Shown here in pieces: positions 1-8,483 of a stretch of DNA of 8,483 nt (within the stretch, counting starts at the first letter, position 1; each line of letters begins with the position of its first letter). The notes below the pieces were generated by a model that worked only from the letters and a program-made list of their open reading frames with translations, did not search any database and had not been told where the DNA came from. A program made the position numbers and the translations under genes. The stretch lies in the IMG/VR virus record IMGVR_UViG_2657245112_000024; one strand, written 5' to 3'. The DNA comes from a virus. Lineage: Duplodnaviria; Heunggongvirae; Uroviricota; Caudoviricetes.

Positions 1-97
1 CTTCGTGTTGTGCCCGGTTTTATTTCACCACCTCCGGGCTTTGGTGGCCTCGGCTATACCCCTACAGCAAGAATATTGAATTAATCCAATAAATGGT

Positions 98-247
98 TTA
101 GCTGGTATTTTTGGCAAGCCAGCGACGTGCGCCAGCTTCGGTTTTAAACGATTTGCTTTTGGTATACGTCATGGCGGTGAATGTGCCGTCCTGATTGGGA
201 AACACGCCACATACCAGAGATTCGTTGTTGCCAAGATCGATAGTATC
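98..247 (-). CDS. Small hypothetical prophage protein (50 aa from the internal ATG; the ORF track extends it to 71 aa at 313)
   Basis: ORF on the minus strand downstream of the repressor gene. The internal ATG at 247 has a GAGG Shine-Dalgarno about 5 nt upstream; the longer 313 start has no obvious RBS. Size and position resemble the small gene that follows dicA in Qin-type prophages, but the sequence is not confidently recognised. Confidence 0.35.
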   Translation of the reverse strand, partial: DTIDLGNNESLVCGVFPNQDGTFTAMTYTKSKSFKTEAGARRWLAKNTS

Positions 248-501
248 CATGTTGACCTCATTTCCCCTTAACGCCGGGTGGCGGAACGTTTTATCTACTG
301 CGCTTTGTATCAATCAACAACTGCCGTCATGTTCGTATGCCTCAGGCTGGCTACTTAGCCCTGTTCAGTGGCTGGATAACTCGAGGTATTGTCCTGCCGT
401 TCTCTGGTGGGGCGTTGTTTGGATATGCTTATTAAACACAATACGTTTTCTTGCGTCAACACGAAATGTGTTTTATGGTGGGTGTCATATGATGATGGTA
501 C

Positions 502-526
502 AAAAAAAGCCCGCTGATAGCGGGCT
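502..526 (-). terminator. Rho-independent terminator downstream of the repressor gene
   Basis: Plus strand shows A7 (502-508) then the perfect inverted repeat agcccgc-tgata-gcgggct (508-526). On the minus strand this is a GC-rich hairpin followed by a T7 tract, about 30 nt past the repressor stop at 557. Confidence 0.6.
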
Positions 527-556
527 GATTGGCATATTACTGTGATAGCAAGATCA

Positions 557-976
557 TTACTCCGGTGGGGGATTATCTTTAAGCCTGCCTCTCAAATATT
601 TTTCTACATACTCATCGATTTCTTTTAGCCGGACTTCAAATAGCTCAATCATTCGTTGTTGTTCTGAGCCCGGTAGCTGGTTAAACAACTCAAGAAGTTT
701 TCGTTGGGATTCATTTAACCACAATTCAGAAGATTCCTGTTCTCCAAAGAGGAGCTCAGGAGGAGATATGCCAAGTGCCTTTCCCAATACGACAGCGTCA
801 TGCACTCCAACATTTCTGCTGCCCGCCTCATAGTTACCTATACGCGATTGCGTCCATCCGCAGATTTCAGCAAGTTTTCCTTGAGATAAACCAAGCTTCT
901 GCCTGCGCTCTTTAAGACGCATTGCAATTTTGTCATTGAGCCTACTAGCGGCAATTTTTTCGTTTTCTTTTTCCAT
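557..976 (-). CDS. Prophage repressor, XRE-family HTH (DicA/cI-like, no S24 peptidase domain)
   Basis: 139 aa. N-terminal HTH_XRE signature (RQKLGLSQGKLAEICGWTQSRIGNYEAG) and C-terminal LLELFNQLPGSEQ motif like DicA-type repressors. AAGGA RBS 4 nt before the ATG. Divergent from a Cro-like gene. Confidence 0.85.
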   Translation of the reverse strand: MEKENEKIAASRLNDKIAMRLKERRQKLGLSQGKLAEICGWTQSRIGNYEAGSRNVGVHDAVVLGKALGISPPELLFGEQESSELWLNESQRKLLELFNQLPGSEQQRMIELFEVRLKEIDEYVEKYLRGRLKDNPPPE

Positions 977-1072
977 TGCATCCTTGTATCACGAATCGTG
1001 ATTTACATAAAACACAAAACAGCTTGACCATATAACACAAGATGTGTTTAAAATTGTCATCGGAGGTTTTCA
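977..1072. promoter_or_regulatory. Divergent promoter/operator region of the lysogeny switch
   Basis: 96-bp intergenic region between divergent repressor and cro-like genes. Two perfect 15-bp palindromes: atcacgaatcgtgat (988-1002) and aacacaagatgtgtt (1034-1048). Candidate sigma70 -35 ttgacc (1024-1029) and -10-like tttaaa about 17 bp downstream, overlapping the second palindrome. GGAGG RBS at 1062-1066 for cro. Confidence 0.6.
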
Positions 1073-1315
1073 ATGAACAAAATTTCAACATATCGAAAAC
1101 AGCTTGGGCTGTCTCAAAGACAACTTGCTGTTCAGTTAGGGTGGATACAAAGCCGACTGGCAAATTACGAAGCAAATTTTCGTACCCCTGGACTAGAGGA
1201 GTGCAGAAAAATTGTTTCTACCCTTAATCGGCTTGGCGCTCATTGTGGACTTGACGATGTATTCCCCCCAGACGGTAAGCATAGCGAAAACAGCATAGGA
1301 GCGGTTGATTCATGA
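1073..1315 (+). CDS. Cro/DicC-like HTH transcriptional regulator
   Basis: 80 aa. HTH_XRE signature (RKQLGLSQRQLAVQLGWIQSRLANYEA) parallel to the repressor HTH. GGAGG RBS 6 nt upstream. Divergent from the repressor. Confidence 0.8.
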   Translation: MNKISTYRKQLGLSQRQLAVQLGWIQSRLANYEANFRTPGLEECRKIVSTLNRLGAHCGLDDVFPPDGKHSENSIGAVDS

Positions 1316-1734
1316 AAATCAGGCATGAGCACATCGAATCAGTGTTGTTAGCCCTGGCAGCCGAAAAAGGGCAGGCGTGGGTCGCTAACGCAATTACTGA
1401 AGAATATCTGCGCCAGGGGGGCGGCGAATTGCCCCTTGTACCAGGCAAGGACTGGAACAATCAGCAGAATATCTATCACCGTTGGTTGAAAGGTGAAACG
1501 AAAGCGCAAAGGGAAAAAATTCAGAAACTGATCCCTGCGGTTCTGGCAATTCTTCCGCGCGAGCTGCGTCACCGACTCTGCATCTTCGATACCTTGGAAC
1601 GCCGTGCATTACTGGCGGCGCAGGAAGCGTTGAGTACGGCAATTGATGCGCATGATGATGCAGTCCAGGCCGTTTACCGGAAAGCACATTTCAGCGGTGG
1701 TGGGTCGTCCGGCGATTCTGTCGTAGTGCATTGA
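1312..1734 (+). CDS. ydaT: YdaT-family protein (Rac prophage ydaT-like; reported as a CII-like regulator in related prophages, historically annotated as a putative toxin)
   Basis: 140 aa, matches my recollection of E. coli Rac YdaT (MKI.HEHIESVL.ALAAEKGQAWVANAITEEYLRQGGGELPL...). Start ATG overlaps the cro stop as ATGA at 1312-1315, indicating translational coupling. Confidence 0.7.
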   Translation: MKIRHEHIESVLLALAAEKGQAWVANAITEEYLRQGGGELPLVPGKDWNNQQNIYHRWLKGETKAQREKIQKLIPAVLAILPRELRHRLCIFDTLERRALLAAQEALSTAIDAHDDAVQAVYRKAHFSGGGSSGDSVVVH

Positions 1735-1778
1735 TTGAAATTAATCGTGCCGGATTGTTTTGTTCGGTATCAGTTAAA

Positions 1779-2220
1779 TGTAACGCTGCGAGCGTTACAA
1801 GGTGAAAACAAATGGCTTCAAACTGGATAAAGCTCGAGGTTATTACGCCGGATAAGCCGGAAATATTCAGGCTTGCTGAGATTCTGAATATTGATCCAGA
1901 TGCCGCATTAGGGAAGGTTATTCGCTTCTGGGCATGGGCGGATCAACAAATGATAGACGGTAATGCAGATTGTAACGCTCGCGGCGTTACAAAAAGTGCA
2001 ATAGATCGCATCACTTTTATGGCTGGTTTTGCTGATGCGTTAATTCAGGTTGGATGGCTGGTCGAAAATGACGGTGGGCTTTCTCTACCTAACTTTGAAC
2101 GTCATAACGGGAAAAGCTCTAAAAAACGGGCGGTTACAAACGAGCGAGTTACAAAAATACGCGAACTGAAACGAAAAGGTAACGCTGGCAGCGTTACACA
2201 AATGGATCAAAAAGCGTTAC
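1779..2220. repeat. Iteron-like inverted/direct repeats (putative phage origin, initiator-binding sites)
   Basis: Repeated GTAACGC...GCGTTAC palindromes: tgtaacgctgcgagcgttaca (1779-1799, perfect, 21 bp), tgtaacgc-tcgcg-gcgttaca (1971-1991), gtaacgctg-g-cagcgttac (2179-2197). Additional half-sites GTTACAAA at 2133-2140 and 2149-2156 and agcgttac at 2213-2220. One copy lies just upstream of the initiator gene and the rest inside its 5' half, as for lambda ori within O. Confidence 0.55.
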
Positions 2221-2600
2221 CAGAGGAAGAGAAAGAGGAAGATATAAATACTGATCTCCCCCTAAATCCCCCTCGCCAAAAACGAGCGTCTAAAAAATTT
2301 GTGCCGGAGGCTATTGAGCTGCCCGATTGGTTGCCGGAAACACTCTGGCATGAGTGGGTCCGGTTCAGGCAGGCATTGCGAAAACCGATTCGAACGGAGC
2401 AGGGCGCTAACGGGGCGATACGGGAGCTGGAAAAATTCCGCCAGCAGGGTTTTACACCTGAGCAGGTGATTCGACACAGTATCGCCAATGAATACCAGGG
2501 CCTGTTCGCGCCGAAAGGTGTTCGGCCTGAGACGTTGCTCCGACAGGTTAACACCGTCTCGTTACCGGATAGTGCGATCCCGCCAGGCTTCAGGGGGTAA
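1812..2600 (+). CDS. Phage replication initiation protein (YdaU/DUF1376-like, with a C-terminal DnaT-like segment)
   Basis: 262 aa. Position immediately upstream of a DnaC-like loader. Contains the iteron cluster. C-terminal region (LPDWLPETLWHEWVRFRQALRKPIRTEQG) resembles the DnaT/primosomal C-terminal domain seen in phage initiators. AAGGTGA RBS. Confidence 0.65.
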   Translation: MASNWIKLEVITPDKPEIFRLAEILNIDPDAALGKVIRFWAWADQQMIDGNADCNARGVTKSAIDRITFMAGFADALIQVGWLVENDGGLSLPNFERHNGKSSKKRAVTNERVTKIRELKRKGNAGSVTQMDQKALPEEEKEEDINTDLPLNPPRQKRASKKFVPEAIELPDWLPETLWHEWVRFRQALRKPIRTEQGANGAIRELEKFRQQGFTPEQVIRHSIANEYQGLFAPKGVRPETLLRQVNTVSLPDSAIPPGFRG

Positions 2601-2606
2601 CTGACC

Positions 2607-3353
2607 ATGAAAAATATTGCGGCAGGCGGCGTTCTTGAACGTATCCGAAGACTGGCTCCGCCACATGTAACCGCCCCATTCAGAACGGTAGCGGAGTGGC
2701 ACGAGTGGCAACTTGCTGAAGGCCAGAAACGTAGCGAGGAGATCAACCGCCTGAATCGCCAGTTGCGGGTGGAAAAAATTCTGAATCGCTCAGGCATCCA
2801 GCCGTTGCACCGTAAATGCTCGTTTGCGAATTACCAGGTGCAGAACGACGGTCAGCGATACGCGTTGAGCCAGGCGAAATCTATCGCTGATGAACTGATG
2901 ACCGGATGCACAAATTTCGCGTTTAGCGGAAAACCTGGTACCGGGAAGAACCACTTAGCAGCAGCTATCGGGAATCGCCTGCTGAAAGACGGTCAGACAG
3001 TGATTGTGGTTACCGTGGCTGATGTTATGAGTGCCCTCCACGCCAGCTATGACGATGGGCAGTCAGGCGAAAAATTTTTGCGGGAACTGTGCGAAGTGGA
3101 TCTGCTGGTTCTTGATGAAATTGGCATTCAGCGCGAGACGAAAAACGAGCAGGTGGTACTGCACCAGATTATTGATCGACGGACAGCGTCGATGCGTAGC
3201 GTGGGAATGCTGACAAACCTGAACTATGAGGCCATGAAAACATTGCTCGGCGAGCGGATTATGGATCGCATGACCATGAACGGCGGGCGATGGGTGAATT
3301 TTAACTGGGAGAGCTGGCGTCCGAATGTCGTCCAGCCAGGAATTGCGAAGTAA
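2607..3353 (+). CDS. DnaC/IstB-like replicative helicase loader ATPase
   Basis: 248 aa. Walker [16 protein letters not shown], Walker B LLVLDEIG, and sensor region typical of the DnaC family. Only 6 nt after the initiator stop, suggesting a shared operon. Confidence 0.85.
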
Positions 3354-3375
3354 TTTTTACCGGGAGAAAAATTTA

Positions 3376-4146
3376 ATGGAGACTGTTTTTGACGCACTGA
3401 AAGCAATGGGAAAAGCCACATCCATAGAACTTGCTGCGCGACTTGATATCAGTCGTGAAGAGATACTGAACGAGCTGTGGGAACTGAAAAGAAATGGCGT
3501 CGTTGATAAAACTGGTCACACCTGGTTTCTGGCTGGCGAAGGTGAATCCGGGGTAACCGAAGAGCAGCCAGCACAATCTGAAGTACCGGATGTGCTAACC
3601 GGGGGGGGCGAACAAAAAGTTACCGCTGACATGATGATTGAGTTTATCGGTCAGGAGGGGGCTAAAACGTGTGAGGAACTGGCGAGTAAGTTCGGTGTCA
3701 GCACTCGCAAGGTTGCTTCCACGCTGGCGGTAGTAACCGCAACGGGGCGGCTGGCACGCGTTAATCAGAACGGTAAATTTCGTTACTGCCTGCCGGACGG
3801 TAATTTACCAGCAGAGCCGAAAGTTGTATCGGTAGCGAAAACACCTGGTAAAGGCTTTCCTCAGCCAGCCGGTTTTGCGTTACCAGTACAGGACGCGGCA
3901 ACACAGGAAGAAATTAAAACAGAAACTGTGGCGGACCTTGTGCAGTCACTGCCATCGTTCACTGAAACGCGAGCGAATGGCCTGATTTTACCATCGCTGC
4001 ATATGGCAAACCGTGAACTGCGTCGGGCGAAAAGTCATGTCCAGAAGTGGGAGCGAGTCTGCGCCGCGCTGCGGGAGTTGAACAAGCACCGGGATATTGT
4101 TCGACAGATTTTCGATTCCTCCAGTCGTATTGTGTCGGAAAAGTGA
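3376..4146 (+). CDS. Hypothetical protein with two winged-helix-like segments
   Basis: ATG at 3376 preferred over the track start at 3325 (GGGAGA RBS 9 nt upstream; the 3325 start would overlap the DnaC-like gene). Two internally similar segments resembling wHTH DNA-binding domains ([28 protein letters not shown] and [29 protein letters not shown]). Confidence 0.55.
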
Positions 4147-4161
4147 TTGCCGGAGGCACCT

Positions 4162-4593
4162 ATGGCAAAAGTATTTACACCAGAAGAGCGGGAAAAAATT
4201 AAAGGGCAGGTTGTTGAACTTGTACGTCTGAGCGGTCGCGAGACGTTACGGGCTCTGGAGGCTAAAACCGGTGCATCAAGGTATTACATAAGCACTCTCG
4301 CCAGAGAACTGGTCGCCAGTGGTGATGTTTACAATTCAGGCTACGGATTATTCCTGTCTGAGCAGGCCCGTAAGGACTGGCAAAACGCCCGCAAAAAACT
4401 ATCCAGGGCAAAGGTGAAAAAAACGGTTGTGGTTGATCCTGACCTTATCTGGTCATTACCAGACGGAGAAATACGCCGCTACGACAGGCGCCTGAATATA
4501 ATCTGTCGCGAGTGCCGGAAAAGCGAAGTTATGCAGCGTGTACTGGCATTTTACCAGAGTAATTTCAGGAGGTTGTCTGGTGAGCACGATTAA
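4162..4593 (+). CDS. Hypothetical protein with N-terminal HTH-like segment
   Basis: ATG at 4162 with GGAGG 5 nt upstream (the track start at 4147 is TTG). Follows the previous gene by 15 nt. HTH-like stretch ETLRALEAKTGASRYYISTLARELVASG. No recognisable catalytic motif. Confidence 0.5.
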   Translation: MAKVFTPEEREKIKGQVVELVRLSGRETLRALEAKTGASRYYISTLARELVASGDVYNSGYGLFLSEQARKDWQNARKKLSRAKVKKTVVVDPDLIWSLPDGEIRRYDRRLNIICRECRKSEVMQRVLAFYQSNFRRLSGEHD

Positions 4594-4618
4594 CTACTAG
4601 GGGGGATAACAATAAAAT

Positions 4619-4638
4619 AAAGCCTCCTAGGAGGCTTT
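4619..4638. terminator. Palindromic hairpin between convergent genes (putative bidirectional terminator)
   Basis: Perfect 20-bp palindrome aaagcctcctaggaggcttt between the plus-strand gene ending at 4593 and the minus-strand methyltransferase whose TAG stop (4627-4629) lies inside it. T-rich flanks on both strands. Confidence 0.5.
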
Positions 4639-5667
4639 GATTATATTAAGCAAATGTTTTCCAATCGTTTCAGACATCTTCGGAGGGACCGCATTTCCTA
4701 TTTGACGAGCCCGAGATTGCAAAGAACCAATAAATTTATAATCCAAAGGAAATGTTTGTAGACACGCTGCTTCACGAACAGATATTGCTCGATTTTGTGT
4801 TGGATGTCCAAAACGTCCATTTGAATAGCTAATACAACGAGTTGTTAGTCCGCTGGCTGGTTTGTCCCAACTCAAACGTCCATATACGTCTGTATGCCCT
4901 TTATGGTTACGATGGCATTCTAAAATCAATTCATCTGGCCAAAATTCTCGACTTCCACCTTCAGGAGTGCATTTTATTCTACGTAAATTAAGCTCTGATA
5001 AGCGTGCAGCTTCATGATCAGGAATACTATTATGCTTTTCTCCTGCTTCTATCTTCGGTAAATTAGCGATCCAGTCCTTTACTGTTGAATAGGGAGTATT
5101 TCCAACCCCATGTGTAGGAGAAGGCAATGCGACATAAAAATCCTTGGATGCAATGAGCACTAATCTTTCTCGCGTCTGTGGTACACCGTACCACGCAGCT
5201 GGCATTACTTTATAATCTACACTATATCCCTTTGATGAAAGCATTTCTAAAAACATCATGAATGTTCCTTCATTTTTGTTAAACTTTTGCATTCCTGGCA
5301 CGTTTTCAACAAAAATAAAATCAGGCATATAATGCTCTACAAAACGACTGAATTCCTTTAATAGATCTAATCGTGGATCATCATTTTTTTTATTTGAGTT
5401 TTGCTTAGAGTACGGTTGACAAGGCGCACATCCTGAAAAAAGAATGTAATCATTACGATGTTTTTTTACTAACTTGTTTATGGCATTGTTGTCGATTAAC
5501 CTAATGTCCGAGTTAATAAAAGCAGCTTGCGGGAAATTTGCACGAAATGAACTGGCTGCATCAACGTCGAAATCGAGGCCAAAAACAATATCCATTCCAG
5601 CTTGATGGAAACCTTGGCTGGTTCCACCACAACCGGAAAAGAAGTCAAACACTTTGATTTTTTTCAT
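4627..5667 (-). CDS. DNA (cytosine-5)-methyltransferase
   Basis: Complete C5-MTase motif set: I FDFFSGCGG (FxGxGG), IV GCAPCQPYS (PCQ), VI FVENVPG (ENV), VIII QTRERL, IX REAACLQTFPLDY, X GNAVPP. ATG at 5667 preferred (GAGGGA RBS 4 nt upstream). The track extends to a GTG at 5691 that overlaps the upstream gene's TAG stop by 1 nt. Confidence 0.9.
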   Translation of the reverse strand: MKKIKVFDFFSGCGGTSQGFHQAGMDIVFGLDFDVDAASSFRANFPQAAFINSDIRLIDNNAINKLVKKHRNDYILFSGCAPCQPYSKQNSNKKNDDPRLDLLKEFSRFVEHYMPDFIFVENVPGMQKFNKNEGTFMMFLEMLSSKGYSVDYKVMPAAWYGVPQTRERLVLIASKDFYVALPSPTHGVGNTPYSTVKDWIANLPKIEAGEKHNSIPDHEAARLSELNLRRIKCTPEGGSREFWPDELILECHRNHKGHTDVYGRLSWDKPASGLTTRCISYSNGRFGHPTQNRAISVREAACLQTFPLDYKFIGSLQSRARQIGNAVPPKMSETIGKHLLNIIKAS

Positions 5668-5690
5668 TTTTCCCTCTGCATCCAGAATCA

Positions 5691-7520
5691 CTACCTAATG
5701 ATACCACGGTCAAGAGCCTGAGTAATTATTTTTCTTATTTTTATAAATTCAGGCAATTCATTTTTAAGTCTTGCGGTCATCATTTTTTGGAGGCAAAAAA
5801 TTTCCTCTGCATTTACTTCTTCTTTATCATACAGGTGTTGCGCTAATAATCTTATTTGATTCTTATACAGCTCTGGATCATTAGAACTCCAGGTCTGTGA
5901 ATCAATTATTTCTTTTTCACTTGGCGTAATTGCCTTTTCAATGAGTAATTGTTCGGGAGTATCAAATGGTAAATACTGCACTTTATTGAATGCATACTCA
6001 AGCACTTGCCTTTTGAGTCTATTAGATTCTTGTTCATTTTTTTTGCCATTACTACCACTGGCATTGATAATTAACTCGCAACCATAATATTTGCACATTG
6101 TATTAACTAAATCAGCATCAGCAATTTCACTAATTCTTACTGGTTTTATTTTTTTGTTTTTATCACCATCAAGTAAAAACAAAATATCATTGCGTTCTAC
6201 CACAGCGTAACTGGGAAGATGCTTGCTTAAAATTGTCTCCGAACCACCTGGTATATAACTTACACTAAATGATAAACTTAATCTTTCATAATTTTTAATC
6301 GCTTTATCTATAATTGCTTTAGCTAATTTATCTTCTACAATTATTGTTTTCTTGTTAATATCATGCCCTAGCTCTATAAAAGCTTCATCCGGTGCTATAT
6401 TTTGAACTATTTTAGCTGTTTCACTCTCTTCATCAAAAACAAATAATTTAATAGCATCTTTGGGAAGAGTGTTCACAATAACAGGAGAATGGGTTGATAT
6501 TACCACTTGATGTTTTTTCTGCTCAACAATAGAGTACAGAACATCCATCATCCTTTTCTGTGCACCAGGGTGAAGTGAAACTTCTGGTTCGTCAAGAAGA
6601 ATTAATGAATTAGGTTTGGCCGAATAAATATTGAGTATTAGTGAAACTATTGCAAATTCACCACTTCCAGCAAAAGCTTCTGTATAGTTCAACTTATCAG
6701 TTGAAAGTAAAGCGGTTCCTCCTCTGGTTCCAAATAACCGATGCTCAAGAAATTTAATGACTTTATATTTTTTTCCTAATATAAATGAGACGTGCTCAAC
6801 TAGTTCTGGCGCCAAGGTTATATTTTTAACAATGGTTTCCGTCCCCCAAAGTCTTAAATTACTTAGCTTTTCATCAAAAGCTTTCTTTATATATTTAGAT
6901 TTGCTTCTGATATAGTCTTGCTTTGTAATTAATACACCACTCTTCTTCTTTCTTAATTTAAAATCAGAGTGATACATACATCTATCAAATGCACTTATTT
7001 CCGATCTGAAATCTAGGAAAATCAATCCCTTCTTGATTTTTTTCCATCTGGTTGCATTACTATTAGCACCCAGATCATCCGAAATACTCTCCATGTTATC
7101 ACCAACAGATGGTCGACTTGTTTCCCAATAATCGATTGTTTTCTTGGTAGCATTGATACGCGCTTGGAGTATTTCAACTAAACGGCCATCAGCATTTTTA
7201 TATCCATATATATATCTAGGCTTAAGAGAACTGCCATCAGCAAGTTTTAGGTCAGGAAACTCATCTGTTTCAGTTGTGAACCAATAACGAGTTATATTTT
7301 TACCATGTGGGCAACCAAATAGCGCTTTGATAACAGAACTTTTATTAGTTCCATTTTTTCCTACTAAAGCCGTTATAGGGAACTGAAAATCGATCCTTGC
7401 ATTCTGCTCTATATTTTTAAAGTATGGAAAACGGATATGTTGTATGAATGGTTCAAATTCACCGTTTTTTAACGCGCACTGGAGTGTTCGAATTTTGCTC
7501 TTGTATGCGGAAGTGCTCAT
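5691..7520 (-). CDS. OLD-family-like ABC ATPase with C-terminal Toprim-like nuclease signature
   Basis: 609 aa. N-terminal P-loop LVGKNGTNKSSV (atypical, N where the conserved G precedes K), Walker B/D-loop LILLDEPEVSLHP, H-loop VVISTHSP. C-terminal candidate Toprim motifs: conserved glutamate in TIIVEDKLAKAII and DxD in ILFLLDGDKNK. Very AT-rich. Immediately upstream of the C5-MTase in the same orientation. Confidence 0.75.
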   Translation of the reverse strand: MSTSAYKSKIRTLQCALKNGEFEPFIQHIRFPYFKNIEQNARIDFQFPITALVGKNGTNKSSVIKALFGCPHGKNITRYWFTTETDEFPDLKLADGSSLKPRYIYGYKNADGRLVEILQARINATKKTIDYWETSRPSVGDNMESISDDLGANSNATRWKKIKKGLIFLDFRSEISAFDRCMYHSDFKLRKKKSGVLITKQDYIRSKSKYIKKAFDEKLSNLRLWGTETIVKNITLAPELVEHVSFILGKKYKVIKFLEHRLFGTRGGTALLSTDKLNYTEAFAGSGEFAIVSLILNIYSAKPNSLILLDEPEVSLHPGAQKRMMDVLYSIVEQKKHQVVISTHSPVIVNTLPKDAIKLFVFDEESETAKIVQNIAPDEAFIELGHDINKKTIIVEDKLAKAIIDKAIKNYERLSLSFSVSYIPGGSETILSKHLPSYAVVERNDILFLLDGDKNKKIKPVRISEIADADLVNTMCKYYGCELIINASGSNGKKNEQESNRLKRQVLEYAFNKVQYLPFDTPEQLLIEKAITPSEKEIIDSQTWSSNDPELYKNQIRLLAQHLYDKEEVNAEEIFCLQKMMTARLKNELPEFIKIRKIITQALDRGIIR

Positions 7521-7668
7521 TGTTTACTAAAGTCCATAATAGGCTATTAACAGGTTGAGGATGACATGATAGCGATTTTTAATGCAGATAAAAGAGGTTT
7601 GTTGGTTAGCACACAACAGAAAAAGTGACCTTACCGCTTGAACGAAAGGTAAGGGTAAGTAGGCTGTG

Positions 7669-7821
7669 ATGCAGCAAAAGGCGATGTTAATCGCCCTGAT
7701 CGTCATCTGTTTAACCGTCGTTGTGACGGCACTGGTAACGAGGAAAGACATCTGCGAGGTACGAATCCGAACCGGCCAGACGGAGGTCGCTGTCTTCACA
7801 GCTTACGAACCTGAGGAGTAA
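7669..7821 (+). CDS. hok: Hok/Gef-family type I toxin (HokD/RelF-like small membrane peptide)
   Basis: 50 aa: MQQKAMLIALIVICLTVVVTALVTRKDICEVRIRTGQTEVAVFTAYEPEE. Single transmembrane helix plus the conserved C-terminal periplasmic region of Hok proteins. Near-identical to my recollection of E. coli HokD/RelF. Not in the ORF track because it is short. Confidence 0.85.
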   Translation: MQQKAMLIALIVICLTVVVTALVTRKDICEVRIRTGQTEVAVFTAYEPEE

Positions 7822-7889
7822 GAGACCCGGCCGAGGAGAAATCCCCCGCCACCTCTGATGTGTCAGGCATCCTCAACGCACCCGTACTT

Positions 7890-7912
7890 AGCCGCTTCGG
7901 CGGGTTTTTTGT
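7890..7912 (+). terminator. Rho-independent terminator at the 3' end of the hok transcript
   Basis: Hairpin agccgc-ttcg-gcggg (7890-7904) followed by T6 (7905-7910), about 70 nt after the hok stop. Hok mRNAs characteristically end in a structured 3' region. Confidence 0.55.
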
Positions 7913-8095
7913 TGCGCGCTGAATACGCAGGGTGAAAAATAACCATATATTTGATTATATACACAACAAAAAATAAAAGTCATTGTACCTGCACATTAAA
8001 TAATCAAATATACGGCGTGAAATAAATATTTTTCAGATTAATATTTTTGTCTCTATGTGGATATAACCGTTTGTACTTATAAACTCGGAGGCATC

Positions 8096-8308
8096 GTGGA
8101 AAAAATAAAGAAACTATTTAGTTGCAAATACGCAGTCATACGTCGTGATGACCTGTCAGTTATAGTCGAAATGGATTACTTCCCTGAAATCCCAAAATCA
8201 ATGATGTATCGTAATGGTCGAAAGGCAATTTTTTTACCGATGAGGGTAAGTGACATTATGGGAAATGATAAACTGCTGGATGAATTGCGAGTCAGAGCAT
8301 CCTGTTAG
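8096..8308 (+). CDS. Small hypothetical prophage protein (70 aa from the GTG; the track extends it to 83 aa from an ATG at 8057)
   Basis: GTG at 8096 has a GGAGG RBS 5 nt upstream; the ATG at 8057 has none. Sits immediately downstream of hok, the position occupied by rem in the Qin prophage, but the sequence is not confidently recognised. Confidence 0.4.
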   Translation: MEKIKKLFSCKYAVIRRDDLSVIVEMDYFPEIPKSMMYRNGRKAIFLPMRVSDIMGNDKLLDELRVRASC

Positions 8309-8356
8309 TATTGGCATTAATTCTGTTATACTACATAACGGGCTGAACACCCATTC

Positions 8357-8483
8357 GGTGATGCTGCCAACTTACTGATTTAGTGTATGATGGTGTTTTT
8401 GAGGTGCTCCAGTGGCTTCTGTTTCTATCAGCTGTCCCTCCTGTTCAGCTACTGACGGGGTGGTGCGTAACGGCAAAAGCACC
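8357..8483. other. p15A-type plasmid replicon-derived sequence (region 5' of the ori as found in pACYC184-type plasmids)
   Basis: From memory, ggtgatgctgccaacttactgatttagtgtatgatggtgtttttgaggtgctccagtggcttctgtttctatcagctgtccctcctgttcagctactgacggggtggtgcgtaacggcaaaagcacc matches the p15A/pACYC184 sequence just upstream of the origin. Sequence before 8357 does not match. Confidence 0.55.

Follow-up and report, generated by a model that had tools for sequence, protein, structure and literature searches.

A 5′-truncated, Sok-less hokD-type toxin gene beside an ATPase–methyltransferase cassette in a Rac/Qin-like prophage

Genes and features of the locus

We analysed a stretch of 8,483 nucleotides from an IMG/VR virus record (IMGVR_UViG_2657245112_000024), hereafter called the window. 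It belongs to an E. coli prophage of the Rac/Qin-like lambdoid type, of which it spans the early-right region, and its positions 1–8356 are 100% identical to E. coli O103 RM8385. The gene order is repressor-like, cro-like, ydaT, replication genes, DUF1627 and DUF977 (4147–4593), followed by two minus-strand cargo genes and a plus-strand hok gene. The first gene of the cargo operon (5691–7520, minus strand) encodes an AAA_15/AAA_21 ATPase, annotated as an “ATP-dependent nuclease”, which matched Pfam AAA_15 (1.1e-20) and AAA_21 (1.6e-20) and the PADLOC models HEC-04 (6.6e-35) and ATPase-Toprim_I-B (8.4e-27). The second (4627–5691, minus strand) encodes a C5 cytosine DNA methyltransferase, or MTase (Pfam DNA_methylase, 5.3e-61; PADLOC MTase_II, 1.4e-96). 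Between the DUF977 gene and the 3′ end of the MTase gene, a terminator-like bidirectional hairpin (4618–4639), with a stem of 8–9 bp and called on both strands, forms the left edge of the low-GC cargo. The GC content of this cargo is 26–42%, versus ~50–55% in the backbone and in hok, a step that fits a foreign cassette.

The first-pass annotation had placed a Hok-family toxin gene at 7669–7821, and this holds: the ORF at 7666–7821 on the plus strand matches Pfam HOK_GEF (PF01848; E=1.5e-22, 79.3 bits against a cut-off of 22, residues 6–47) and is intact, with 51 codons from a GTG at 7666 or 50 from an ATG at 7669. The match to the NCBIfam Hok subfamily stayed below its cut-off (46.5 vs 73). 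The hallmarks of the family can be read from the sequence, with a small hydrophobic N-terminal helix (LIALIVICLTVVVTALV) followed by a conserved Cys in DICEV. Tyr47 is encoded by TAC followed by G (TACG, 7804–7807), which gives an editable Tyr at the second Cys position; TACG is the TadA editing motif of hok genes (PMC5630033). The protein shares 48 of its 51 residues (94%) with K-12 HokD, which is toxic on over-expression (bioRxiv preprint), and RefSeq names the identical DNA hokD, “type I toxin-antitoxin system toxin HokD”. Judged by these features, the window Hok is a member of the Hok/Gef protein family. Its peptide did not occur in the accessible part of the supplementary text of a bioRxiv Hok survey.

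As the first-pass annotation had described, hok lies head-to-head with the ATPase–MTase operon, with both cargo genes on the minus strand and hok on the plus strand; a spacer of 145 nt (7521–7665) separates hok from the ATPase gene. The absence of relBE was likewise borne out, with no RelB or RelE homologue detected in the window by tblastn, and so was the order relB-relE-hokD given for the Qin prophage of K-12. Downstream of hok, an 83-aa ORF occupies 8057–8308; it was considered as a counterpart of K-12 Rem and rejected on comparison.

The hok leader is reduced to its final 23 nt

We aligned the window with the Sp5/VT2-Sakai hokW-sokW locus, the Rac-SA53 hok-mok locus, the complete locus of strain 2011C-4251 and K-12 hokD. 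The three complete loci share a leader of ~170 nt that begins GGGTGCTTGAGG. The window, by blastn and MAFFT, joins this homology only at 7643, 23 nt before the start codon, so that 7643–7665 (plus strand) corresponds to reference positions 148–170. This remnant has four substitutions relative to the canonical sequence, and two more fall in the first two hok codons. The breakpoint is uncertain by ~14 nt because 7629–7642 is faintly similar to the leader. In place of leader positions 1–147 stands cargo-specific intergenic DNA (7521–7642), which replaces the hok promoter, tac, ucb, the Sok target, the Sok gene and the mok start. The roles of tac, fbi, ucb, the mok Shine-Dalgarno sequence and Sok have been described (PMC9841398).

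The Rfam sok model RF01794, which spans the hok leader up to the hok ATG, scored 113.5 and 122.3 bits on complete loci, our positive control; it had no match in the whole window at the gathering threshold, nor in 7400–8100 at E≤10. The Rfam scans of the window yielded only chance-level matches (isrK at E=0.25 and a snoRNA) and no supported RNA family. From the annotated 5′ end of sokW we reconstructed the Sok promoter as TTGCCT-17-TAACCT. A relic of its −35 hexamer persists in the window (the reverse complement of 7647–7652 reads TTACCT), and the equivalent of the −10 element reads GTCACT and matches at 2/6 positions; cargo DNA now stands in place of the −10 element and the RNA body. Complete loci have mok as an upstream extension in the hok frame, which is open there; in the window this frame is closed by TGA at 7639–7641 and by TAG at 7660–7662, the latter a CAG-to-TAG change. 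Alignment with the complete loci showed that the mok start and the ucb element are gone from the window leader, and no tac box was found anywhere in the window with up to three mismatches allowed.

On this comparison of sequences, the locus is a 5′-truncated, Sok-less hokD-type remnant rather than a complete hok/sok/mok locus. The suggestion that a Sok-like antisense RNA and a mok-like frame are hidden in the leader is refuted, since only 7643–7665 aligns, Rfam finds no sok, mok is closed and tac is missing. An alignment of the leader with a canonical locus in which sok and mok are intact, which would have made the locus ordinary, was not obtained; the locus is non-canonical, but in a way already known from K-12 hokD.

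The spacer is cargo DNA without a recognisable promoter

The spacer does contain a short frame upstream of hok, as had been pointed out; it lies at 7566–7628 on the plus strand (MIAIFNADKRGLLVSTQQKK) and has GAGGA 5 nt upstream of its ATG. Between this ORF and hok lies a composite leader hairpin (CCUUACC/GGUAAGG, 7629–7654, plus strand; 7 bp, −10.3 kcal/mol), to which cargo DNA contributes the 5′ arm and the hok remnant the 3′ arm. Together with the surviving Sok −35 hexamer, the well-placed Shine-Dalgarno sequence and this hairpin could be taken to mean that the locus is a complete but divergent type I system, in which the 145-nt spacer supplies a new Sok-like RNA and the short ORF a new mok. 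We consider this extremely unlikely. A sok model that detects complete loci finds nothing here at E≤10, the Sok −10 equivalent is poor, and no minus-strand promoter reaches consensus thresholds. Ribosomes on the short ORF could not open the helix at the hok start described below, because the ORF ends 37 nt before hok, outside that helix. Its variants in 12 IMG/VR copies (A3T, I4N and S15T versus one synonymous change) do not support a conserved gene on sequence grounds, and we rejected it as a new mok on its geometry and this 3-to-1 pattern. The spacer is, moreover, cargo DNA that accompanies the ATPase–MTase cassette: 7515–7650 occurs in E. coli only alongside this cargo, in 32 of 5426 complete genomes, and had no match among phage records.

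The first-pass annotation held that 7521–7668 must carry the promoter of the ATPase operon on the minus strand and the hok leader on the plus strand. Neither a tool-based scan nor a relaxed scan found a consensus sigma-70 promoter on either strand of 7521–7668; a promoter for each unit in this region remains an expectation. In a complete locus the same scan picked out the hok promoter just before the leader (TTTATA-17-TAAAAT), as well as the terminator. No canonical-like hok promoter was present in 7350–7668, a result of consensus matching that weak promoters could escape. The candidates seen were a weak plus-strand one at 7555–7583 (TTGAGG-17-TTTAAT) and, as the best on the minus strand, one inside hok at 7713–7684 (TAAACA-18-TAACAT, score 7.5/12).

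The start region is predicted to be locked in a strengthened helix

The start region of hok in the window reads GGTAAGGGTAAGTAGGCTGTGATG. Over the 27 nt around the start it differs from the canonical sequence at six positions (AAAGGCAAGGAGAAGCAGGCTATGAAG to AAAGGTAAGGGTAAGTAGGCTGTGATG), with the effect that the Shine-Dalgarno GGAG becomes GGGT, the ATG becomes GTG, the next codon becomes ATG and the mok frame acquires a stop. This GTGATG start variant was found only behind this cargo, in 12/12 matching IMG/VR contigs and in 32 of the 5426 E. coli genomes.

RNAfold and duplex calculations predict a helix between the start region (5′ arm 7659–7675, plus strand, covering the hok start codon and the residual Shine-Dalgarno sequence) and the 3′ coding region of hok (3′ arm 7789–7806, plus strand, containing the Tyr47 TAC). 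It comprises 11+5 bp at −30.7 to −31.6 kcal/mol, compared to −18.7 to −21.1 kcal/mol in the canonical loci and K-12 hokD, a gain of ~10 kcal/mol over canonical. Helices of this kind run through the family (hokA, −30.9; hokB, −24.9, each at z ~ −5.7 versus shuffles; hokC, −21.4), with hokE as the exception. The gain is due to just two of the six substitutions (7660 C→U and 7666 A→G), and in a post hoc test that rests on these two only 0.08% of random sets of six substitutions reached the observed stability. The hok start region is thus predicted to be translationally locked.

The 3′ elements are present but weakened

Downstream of the toxin gene, the 3′-UTR stability hairpin (7829–7850, plus strand) carries two mismatches and folds at −8.7 kcal/mol, versus −19.6 kcal/mol in K-12 and the complete loci. 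The fbi box (7871–7883, plus strand; CCTCAACGCACCC) is retained in invariant alignment columns, while its 5′ partner tac is gone. The leader/fbi duplex of the window (−22.7 kcal/mol) equals the shuffled background (−20.4 ± 3.2), compared to −33.9 kcal/mol for a canonical locus. hok had also been credited with its own terminator. A terminator-like hairpin with a run of six T (CCGC-UUCG-GCGG + T6; 7892–7910, plus strand) is indeed present and homologous to the terminators of K-12 hokD and the complete loci, but a 1-nt deletion cuts its stem to 4 bp (−6.8 vs −13.7 kcal/mol) and places it under the scan threshold that detects the canonical copy; the earlier statement is thus borne out only in part.

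These features bear on the possibility that hok is an induction-coupled lysis helper, read through from the early-right operon and aiding lysis as Sp5 HokW does. HokW is made after mitomycin C and aids phage release (PMC8621323), the window hok is oriented like the early-right genes, and its ORF is intact in all six haplotypes found behind the window junction. Read-through would, however, have to pass the bidirectional terminator at 4618–4639 and then 3 kb in which the RNA is untranslated and runs antisense to the cargo genes, where Rho would probably end it, and the transcript would present a start region predicted to be locked, without its Shine-Dalgarno sequence and with a weakened 3′ stability hairpin. 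We regard this role as unlikely.

hok borders a hypervariable defence-cargo hotspot

To place the locus in context we surveyed 88 hok loci, from 80 IMG/VR contigs and the reference loci. Most lie downstream of a DUF977 gene, at a distance of 0.8–3.9 kb. Across ~60 loci the interval between the DUF977 gene and hok held 55 distinct clusters of ORFs of at least 110 aa, and six of the ten largest distinct cargo proteins had PADLOC defence matches (KwaB, 1.5e-159; PDC-S39, 3e-102; PDC-S15, 7e-99; PD-Lambda-2_C, 1e-41; an Aga REase model, 1e-20; Hp2, 1e-10). In Rac/Qin-like prophages, hok/sok thus marks, at a fixed position, the right border of a hotspot whose defence cargo is hypervariable. Since hok keeps a fixed prophage site and the adjoining cargo varies, its adjacency to the ATPase–MTase operon is positional.

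The leader was complete in 76/88 of the surveyed loci; five had the window-type truncation, six the K-12 type, and one was cut by the end of its contig. Three 15-mer matches (L001 at 20858, L038 at 1921 and L065 at 5049) lacked a hok ORF and were discarded as chance. By blastn against the reference leader, the breakpoint fell at position 148 in the five window-type loci and at 157 in the six K-12-type loci. The cargo and junction of the window were found in 32/5426 complete E. coli genomes, 28 of which carry an FORC 064-type copy that is 99.4% identical; the two such loci inspected belong to a true Rac prophage (racR ... trkG) whose immunity region differs. RM8385 and ATCC 8739 both have the window junction. 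The relE-hokD junction of K-12 is more common (1173 of 5426), and a complete leader with the hok start was present in 4294 of the 5426, a count that may include paralogous hok loci.

The first-pass annotation had raised the possibility of an orphan toxin whose expression is coupled to the defence operon. In a stronger form, Hok would be a downstream effector of the operon, or a long 5′ UTR of the ATPase operon, starting inside hok, would act as an antisense repressor. The two units are adjacent and divergent, the cargo and the window hok junction always occur together, and with no consensus ATPase promoter in the spacer the best minus-strand candidate is the one inside hok. That candidate is weak, however, and dozens of unrelated cargoes, Kiwa, PD-Lambda-2, PDC-S15 and PDC-S39 among them, are found next to hok at this same site. 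A search for ATPase homologues in GTDB representatives (one genome per species) gave a single match, in Pantoea, with 63% identity; the methyltransferase is present there, with no hok and no similar spacer. The haplotypes of the hok coding sequence behind the window junction are mosaic, as expected of mere flanking homology, and hok is not enriched near defence systems (bioRxiv survey). We judge a functional tie to be very unlikely. The orphan half of the earlier proposal stands; coupling lacks support, given the fixed hok site, the variable cargo, the divergent units and the predicted locked start.

Relation to known hok loci

The complete prophage loci (Sp5/VT2-Sakai hokW-sokW, Rac-SA53 hok-mok and 2011C-4251) share ~90–97% nucleotide identity with the window over the hok coding sequence and 3′ UTR, and the same helix between start region and 3′ coding region. 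Those of Rac-SA53 and 2011C-4251 also occupy the same position, before the DUF1367/DUF1364/Q genes. In contrast to the window, which has none of these elements, they carry the 170-nt leader with promoter, tac, ucb, Sok target, Sok gene and in-frame mok, and hokW-sokW is an experimentally shown toxin-antitoxin pair (PMC8621323). With hok/sok (parB) of plasmid R1 the window shares the toxin family and the logic of a 3′ fbi box and 3′ stability hairpin (PMC9841398), but R1 hok/sok works as a full system of post-segregational killing. The window has kept just the toxin ORF and 3′ elements, and the antisense control that defines the system therefore cannot operate.

The closest likeness is to K-12 Qin hokD (relF). 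Like the window, it has lost the 5′ leader together with sok, mok and tac, has kept the fbi box and terminator, and sits at the same place on the prophage map, upstream of the Q-antiterminator module. The two differ in several respects. K-12 hokD joins the leader alignment 14 nt before the start and the window 9 nt further upstream, and the separate breakpoints (157 and 148) indicate independent truncations. The neighbour of K-12 hokD is the co-directional relBE pair, whereas that of the window gene is the divergent ATPase–MTase operon, so that no upstream operon promoter feeds the window hok. The loss of the Shine-Dalgarno sequence, the GTG/ATG shift and the ~10 kcal/mol stronger helix are all found in the window and not in K-12 hokD, and the window junction is much rarer (32 vs 1173 of 5426 genomes). 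The window hok is thus hokD-like in architecture; it is neither the K-12 allele nor the third gene of a relB-relE-hokD operon. The locus is a second, independent example of a known, K-12 hokD-like relic, and otherwise ordinary.

In K-12, hok loci have been inactivated by IS elements, point mutation or rearrangement, according to the part of PMC7232551 that cites Pedersen and Gerdes (1999). We take the K-12 hokD relic to be probably silent. Truncated loci are not necessarily so, since K-12 hokD mRNA is transcribed and edited (PMC5630033). The bioRxiv Hok survey deliberately left Sok and Mok elements unanalysed, and truncated loci of the window's sort are for this reason uncatalogued.

Discussion

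We propose, with a probability of about 0.68, that what is left here is the 3′ part of a prophage hok/sok/mok locus that was truncated by a cassette, and that it persists as a silenced but toxic-capable relic and recombination anchor. The ancestor would have been a complete hok/sok at the right border of the hypervariable hotspot downstream of the DUF977 gene. Recombination would then have imported the low-GC ATPase–MTase cassette, whose right end fell within the hok leader, at 7643. Leader positions 1–147 would thereby have been removed, and with them the hok promoter, tac, ucb, the Sok target, the mok start codon and the Sok gene together with its −10 element. The intact hok ORF, the helix between start region and 3′ coding region, a partnerless fbi box and weakened 3′ hairpins would be the survivors. 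In canonical loci, translation of hok depends on ribosomes from mok, which open its start region. With no mok, a destroyed Shine-Dalgarno sequence, the GTG/ATG shift and a stronger helix, Hok is presumably translated little or not at all, and the lack of a recognisable promoter suggests that hok transcription is probably low as well. The gene would thus persist as a relic that could still be toxic and as flanking homology for cargo exchange, with K-12 hokD, the product of a separate truncation event, as its analogue.

The value of this result is mainly corrective. The RefSeq label HokD suggests a working toxin-antitoxin pair; with antitoxin, leader frame and promoter absent, the window hok ought to be left out of counts of functional toxin-antitoxin systems and kept apart from the adjacent defence operon. 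At this one prophage hotspot, hok has been truncated at least twice, independently and within 9 nt, which suggests that its start region and coding sequence serve as a homology anchor for cargo exchange. The strengthening of a family-wide inhibitory helix would illustrate in a simple way how an orphaned toxin gene may remain harmless while its reading frame stays intact.

The truncated locus might instead have been shaped by selection rather than decay, the toxin having been silenced at the RNA level after the loss of Sok and mok. On this reading the changes 7660 C→U and 7666 A→G would have closed mismatches in the helix, the Shine-Dalgarno sequence would also have been removed, and an intact toxin gene would have been kept as a latent effector and recombination anchor of the prophage defence hotspot. 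We find this rather doubtful. If it were true, the hok/sok borders of Rac-like prophages could serve more generally as addiction or anchor elements that keep defence cargo in place.

Against the relic reading stand the weak plus-strand promoter candidate at 7555–7583 and the coding sequences behind the window junction. The ORF is intact in 6/6 haplotypes, and their mosaic structure points to recombination end-points inside hok. Compared to K-12 hokD, dN/dS of these haplotypes is roughly 0.2–0.6, a range that is not decisive; where truncated loci were compared with complete ones, the latter had been sampled by protein identity and are biased against amino-acid variation. The intact ORF and these ratios may stem from some remaining selection on function, or from gene conversion by complete copies.

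A hypervariable cargo hotspot bordered by hok

In Rac/Qin-like prophages, a hypervariable cargo hotspot occupies the interval between the DUF977 gene and the toxin gene hok (window 4594–7642; loci L009–L087 in the comparison). Across about 60 loci it ranged from 0.8 to 3.9 kb in length and held 55 distinct ORF clusters. Six of the ten largest cargo proteins matched PADLOC models, the matches being to Kiwa KwaB, PD-Lambda-2_C, PDC-S15, PDC-S39, an Aga REase model and Hp2. A few loci carry their cargo 3′ of hok and not in this interval. We conclude that hok/sok is the conserved border of a hotspot for defence genes, even though hok showed no global enrichment near such systems in a recent bioRxiv survey.

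In the window, the cargo is a conserved gene pair encoding an ATPase and a C5 methyltransferase (4627–7520). The best PADLOC matches of the ATPase were to HEC-04 (6.6e-35) and ATPase-Toprim_I-B (8.4e-27), and no nuclease partner for the pair was evident apart from the C-terminal region of the ATPase itself. In Pantoea sp. alder81 (L100, 3001–5920), an ATPase 63% identical to that of the window is followed by a methyltransferase-sized ORF, in a context that differs from that of the window.

Exchange of the cargo-hok module and recombination within hok

The cargo-hok module is common to prophages with differing immunity regions. That of the window (557–1734) encodes a 139-aa HTH repressor and an 80-aa Cro-like protein, and the corresponding comparison was with positions 1805–3146 of locus L006. 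In the FORC 064-type copy, found in 28 genomes, racR and ydaS were present in both of the loci inspected (n = 2). The pattern is one of modular exchange among prophages of the Rac type.

The hok coding sequence behind the identical cargo junction is mosaic (window 7666–7821 compared with L006 and L088–L099): six or more haplotypes are seen, with 4–15 nucleotide differences from K-12 hokD, and the versions of the 3′ UTR and terminator vary among them as well. This mosaicism behind a single junction indicates that recombination has occurred repeatedly, with end-points inside hok.

The Tyr47 codon of hok is TAC followed by G (7804–7807), the motif for A-to-I editing by TadA, through which a Tyr codon is read as Cys in hokC, hokD and hokE (PMC5630033). 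In the window this motif falls within the 3′ arm of the helix predicted to pair the hok start region with the 3′ coding region, so editing at Tyr47 and opening of this helix could interfere with one another.

Features downstream of hok

Two minus-strand promoter-like sites, ATGACT-18-TATAAT (7983–7954; 10/12 matches) and CTGAAA-18-TATATT (8036–8007), lie in the AT-rich spacer 3′ of hok and are directed back at its 3′ end. Both are shared with the complete hok/sok locus of strain 2011C-4251 (L002, 5342–5313 and 5395–5366, respectively). Transcription from these sites could run antisense through the hok 3′ UTR; alternatively, they could be AT-rich noise, two having been found against 1.5 expected.

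Further 3′ of hok is an 83-aa ORF (8057–8308; 70 aa in the shorter RefSeq version) without a Pfam or PADLOC match. Its identification as K-12 Rem was rejected, as the two show no similarity despite their equivalent position. The left end of an IS1-family element (GGTGATGCTGCCAACTTACTG...) begins at 8357 and runs past the window end (8357–8483). E. coli O103 RM8385, which is identical to the window through 8356, lacks the IS at this point, and the insertion site in the window's source strain is directly 5′ of the DUF1367 gene.
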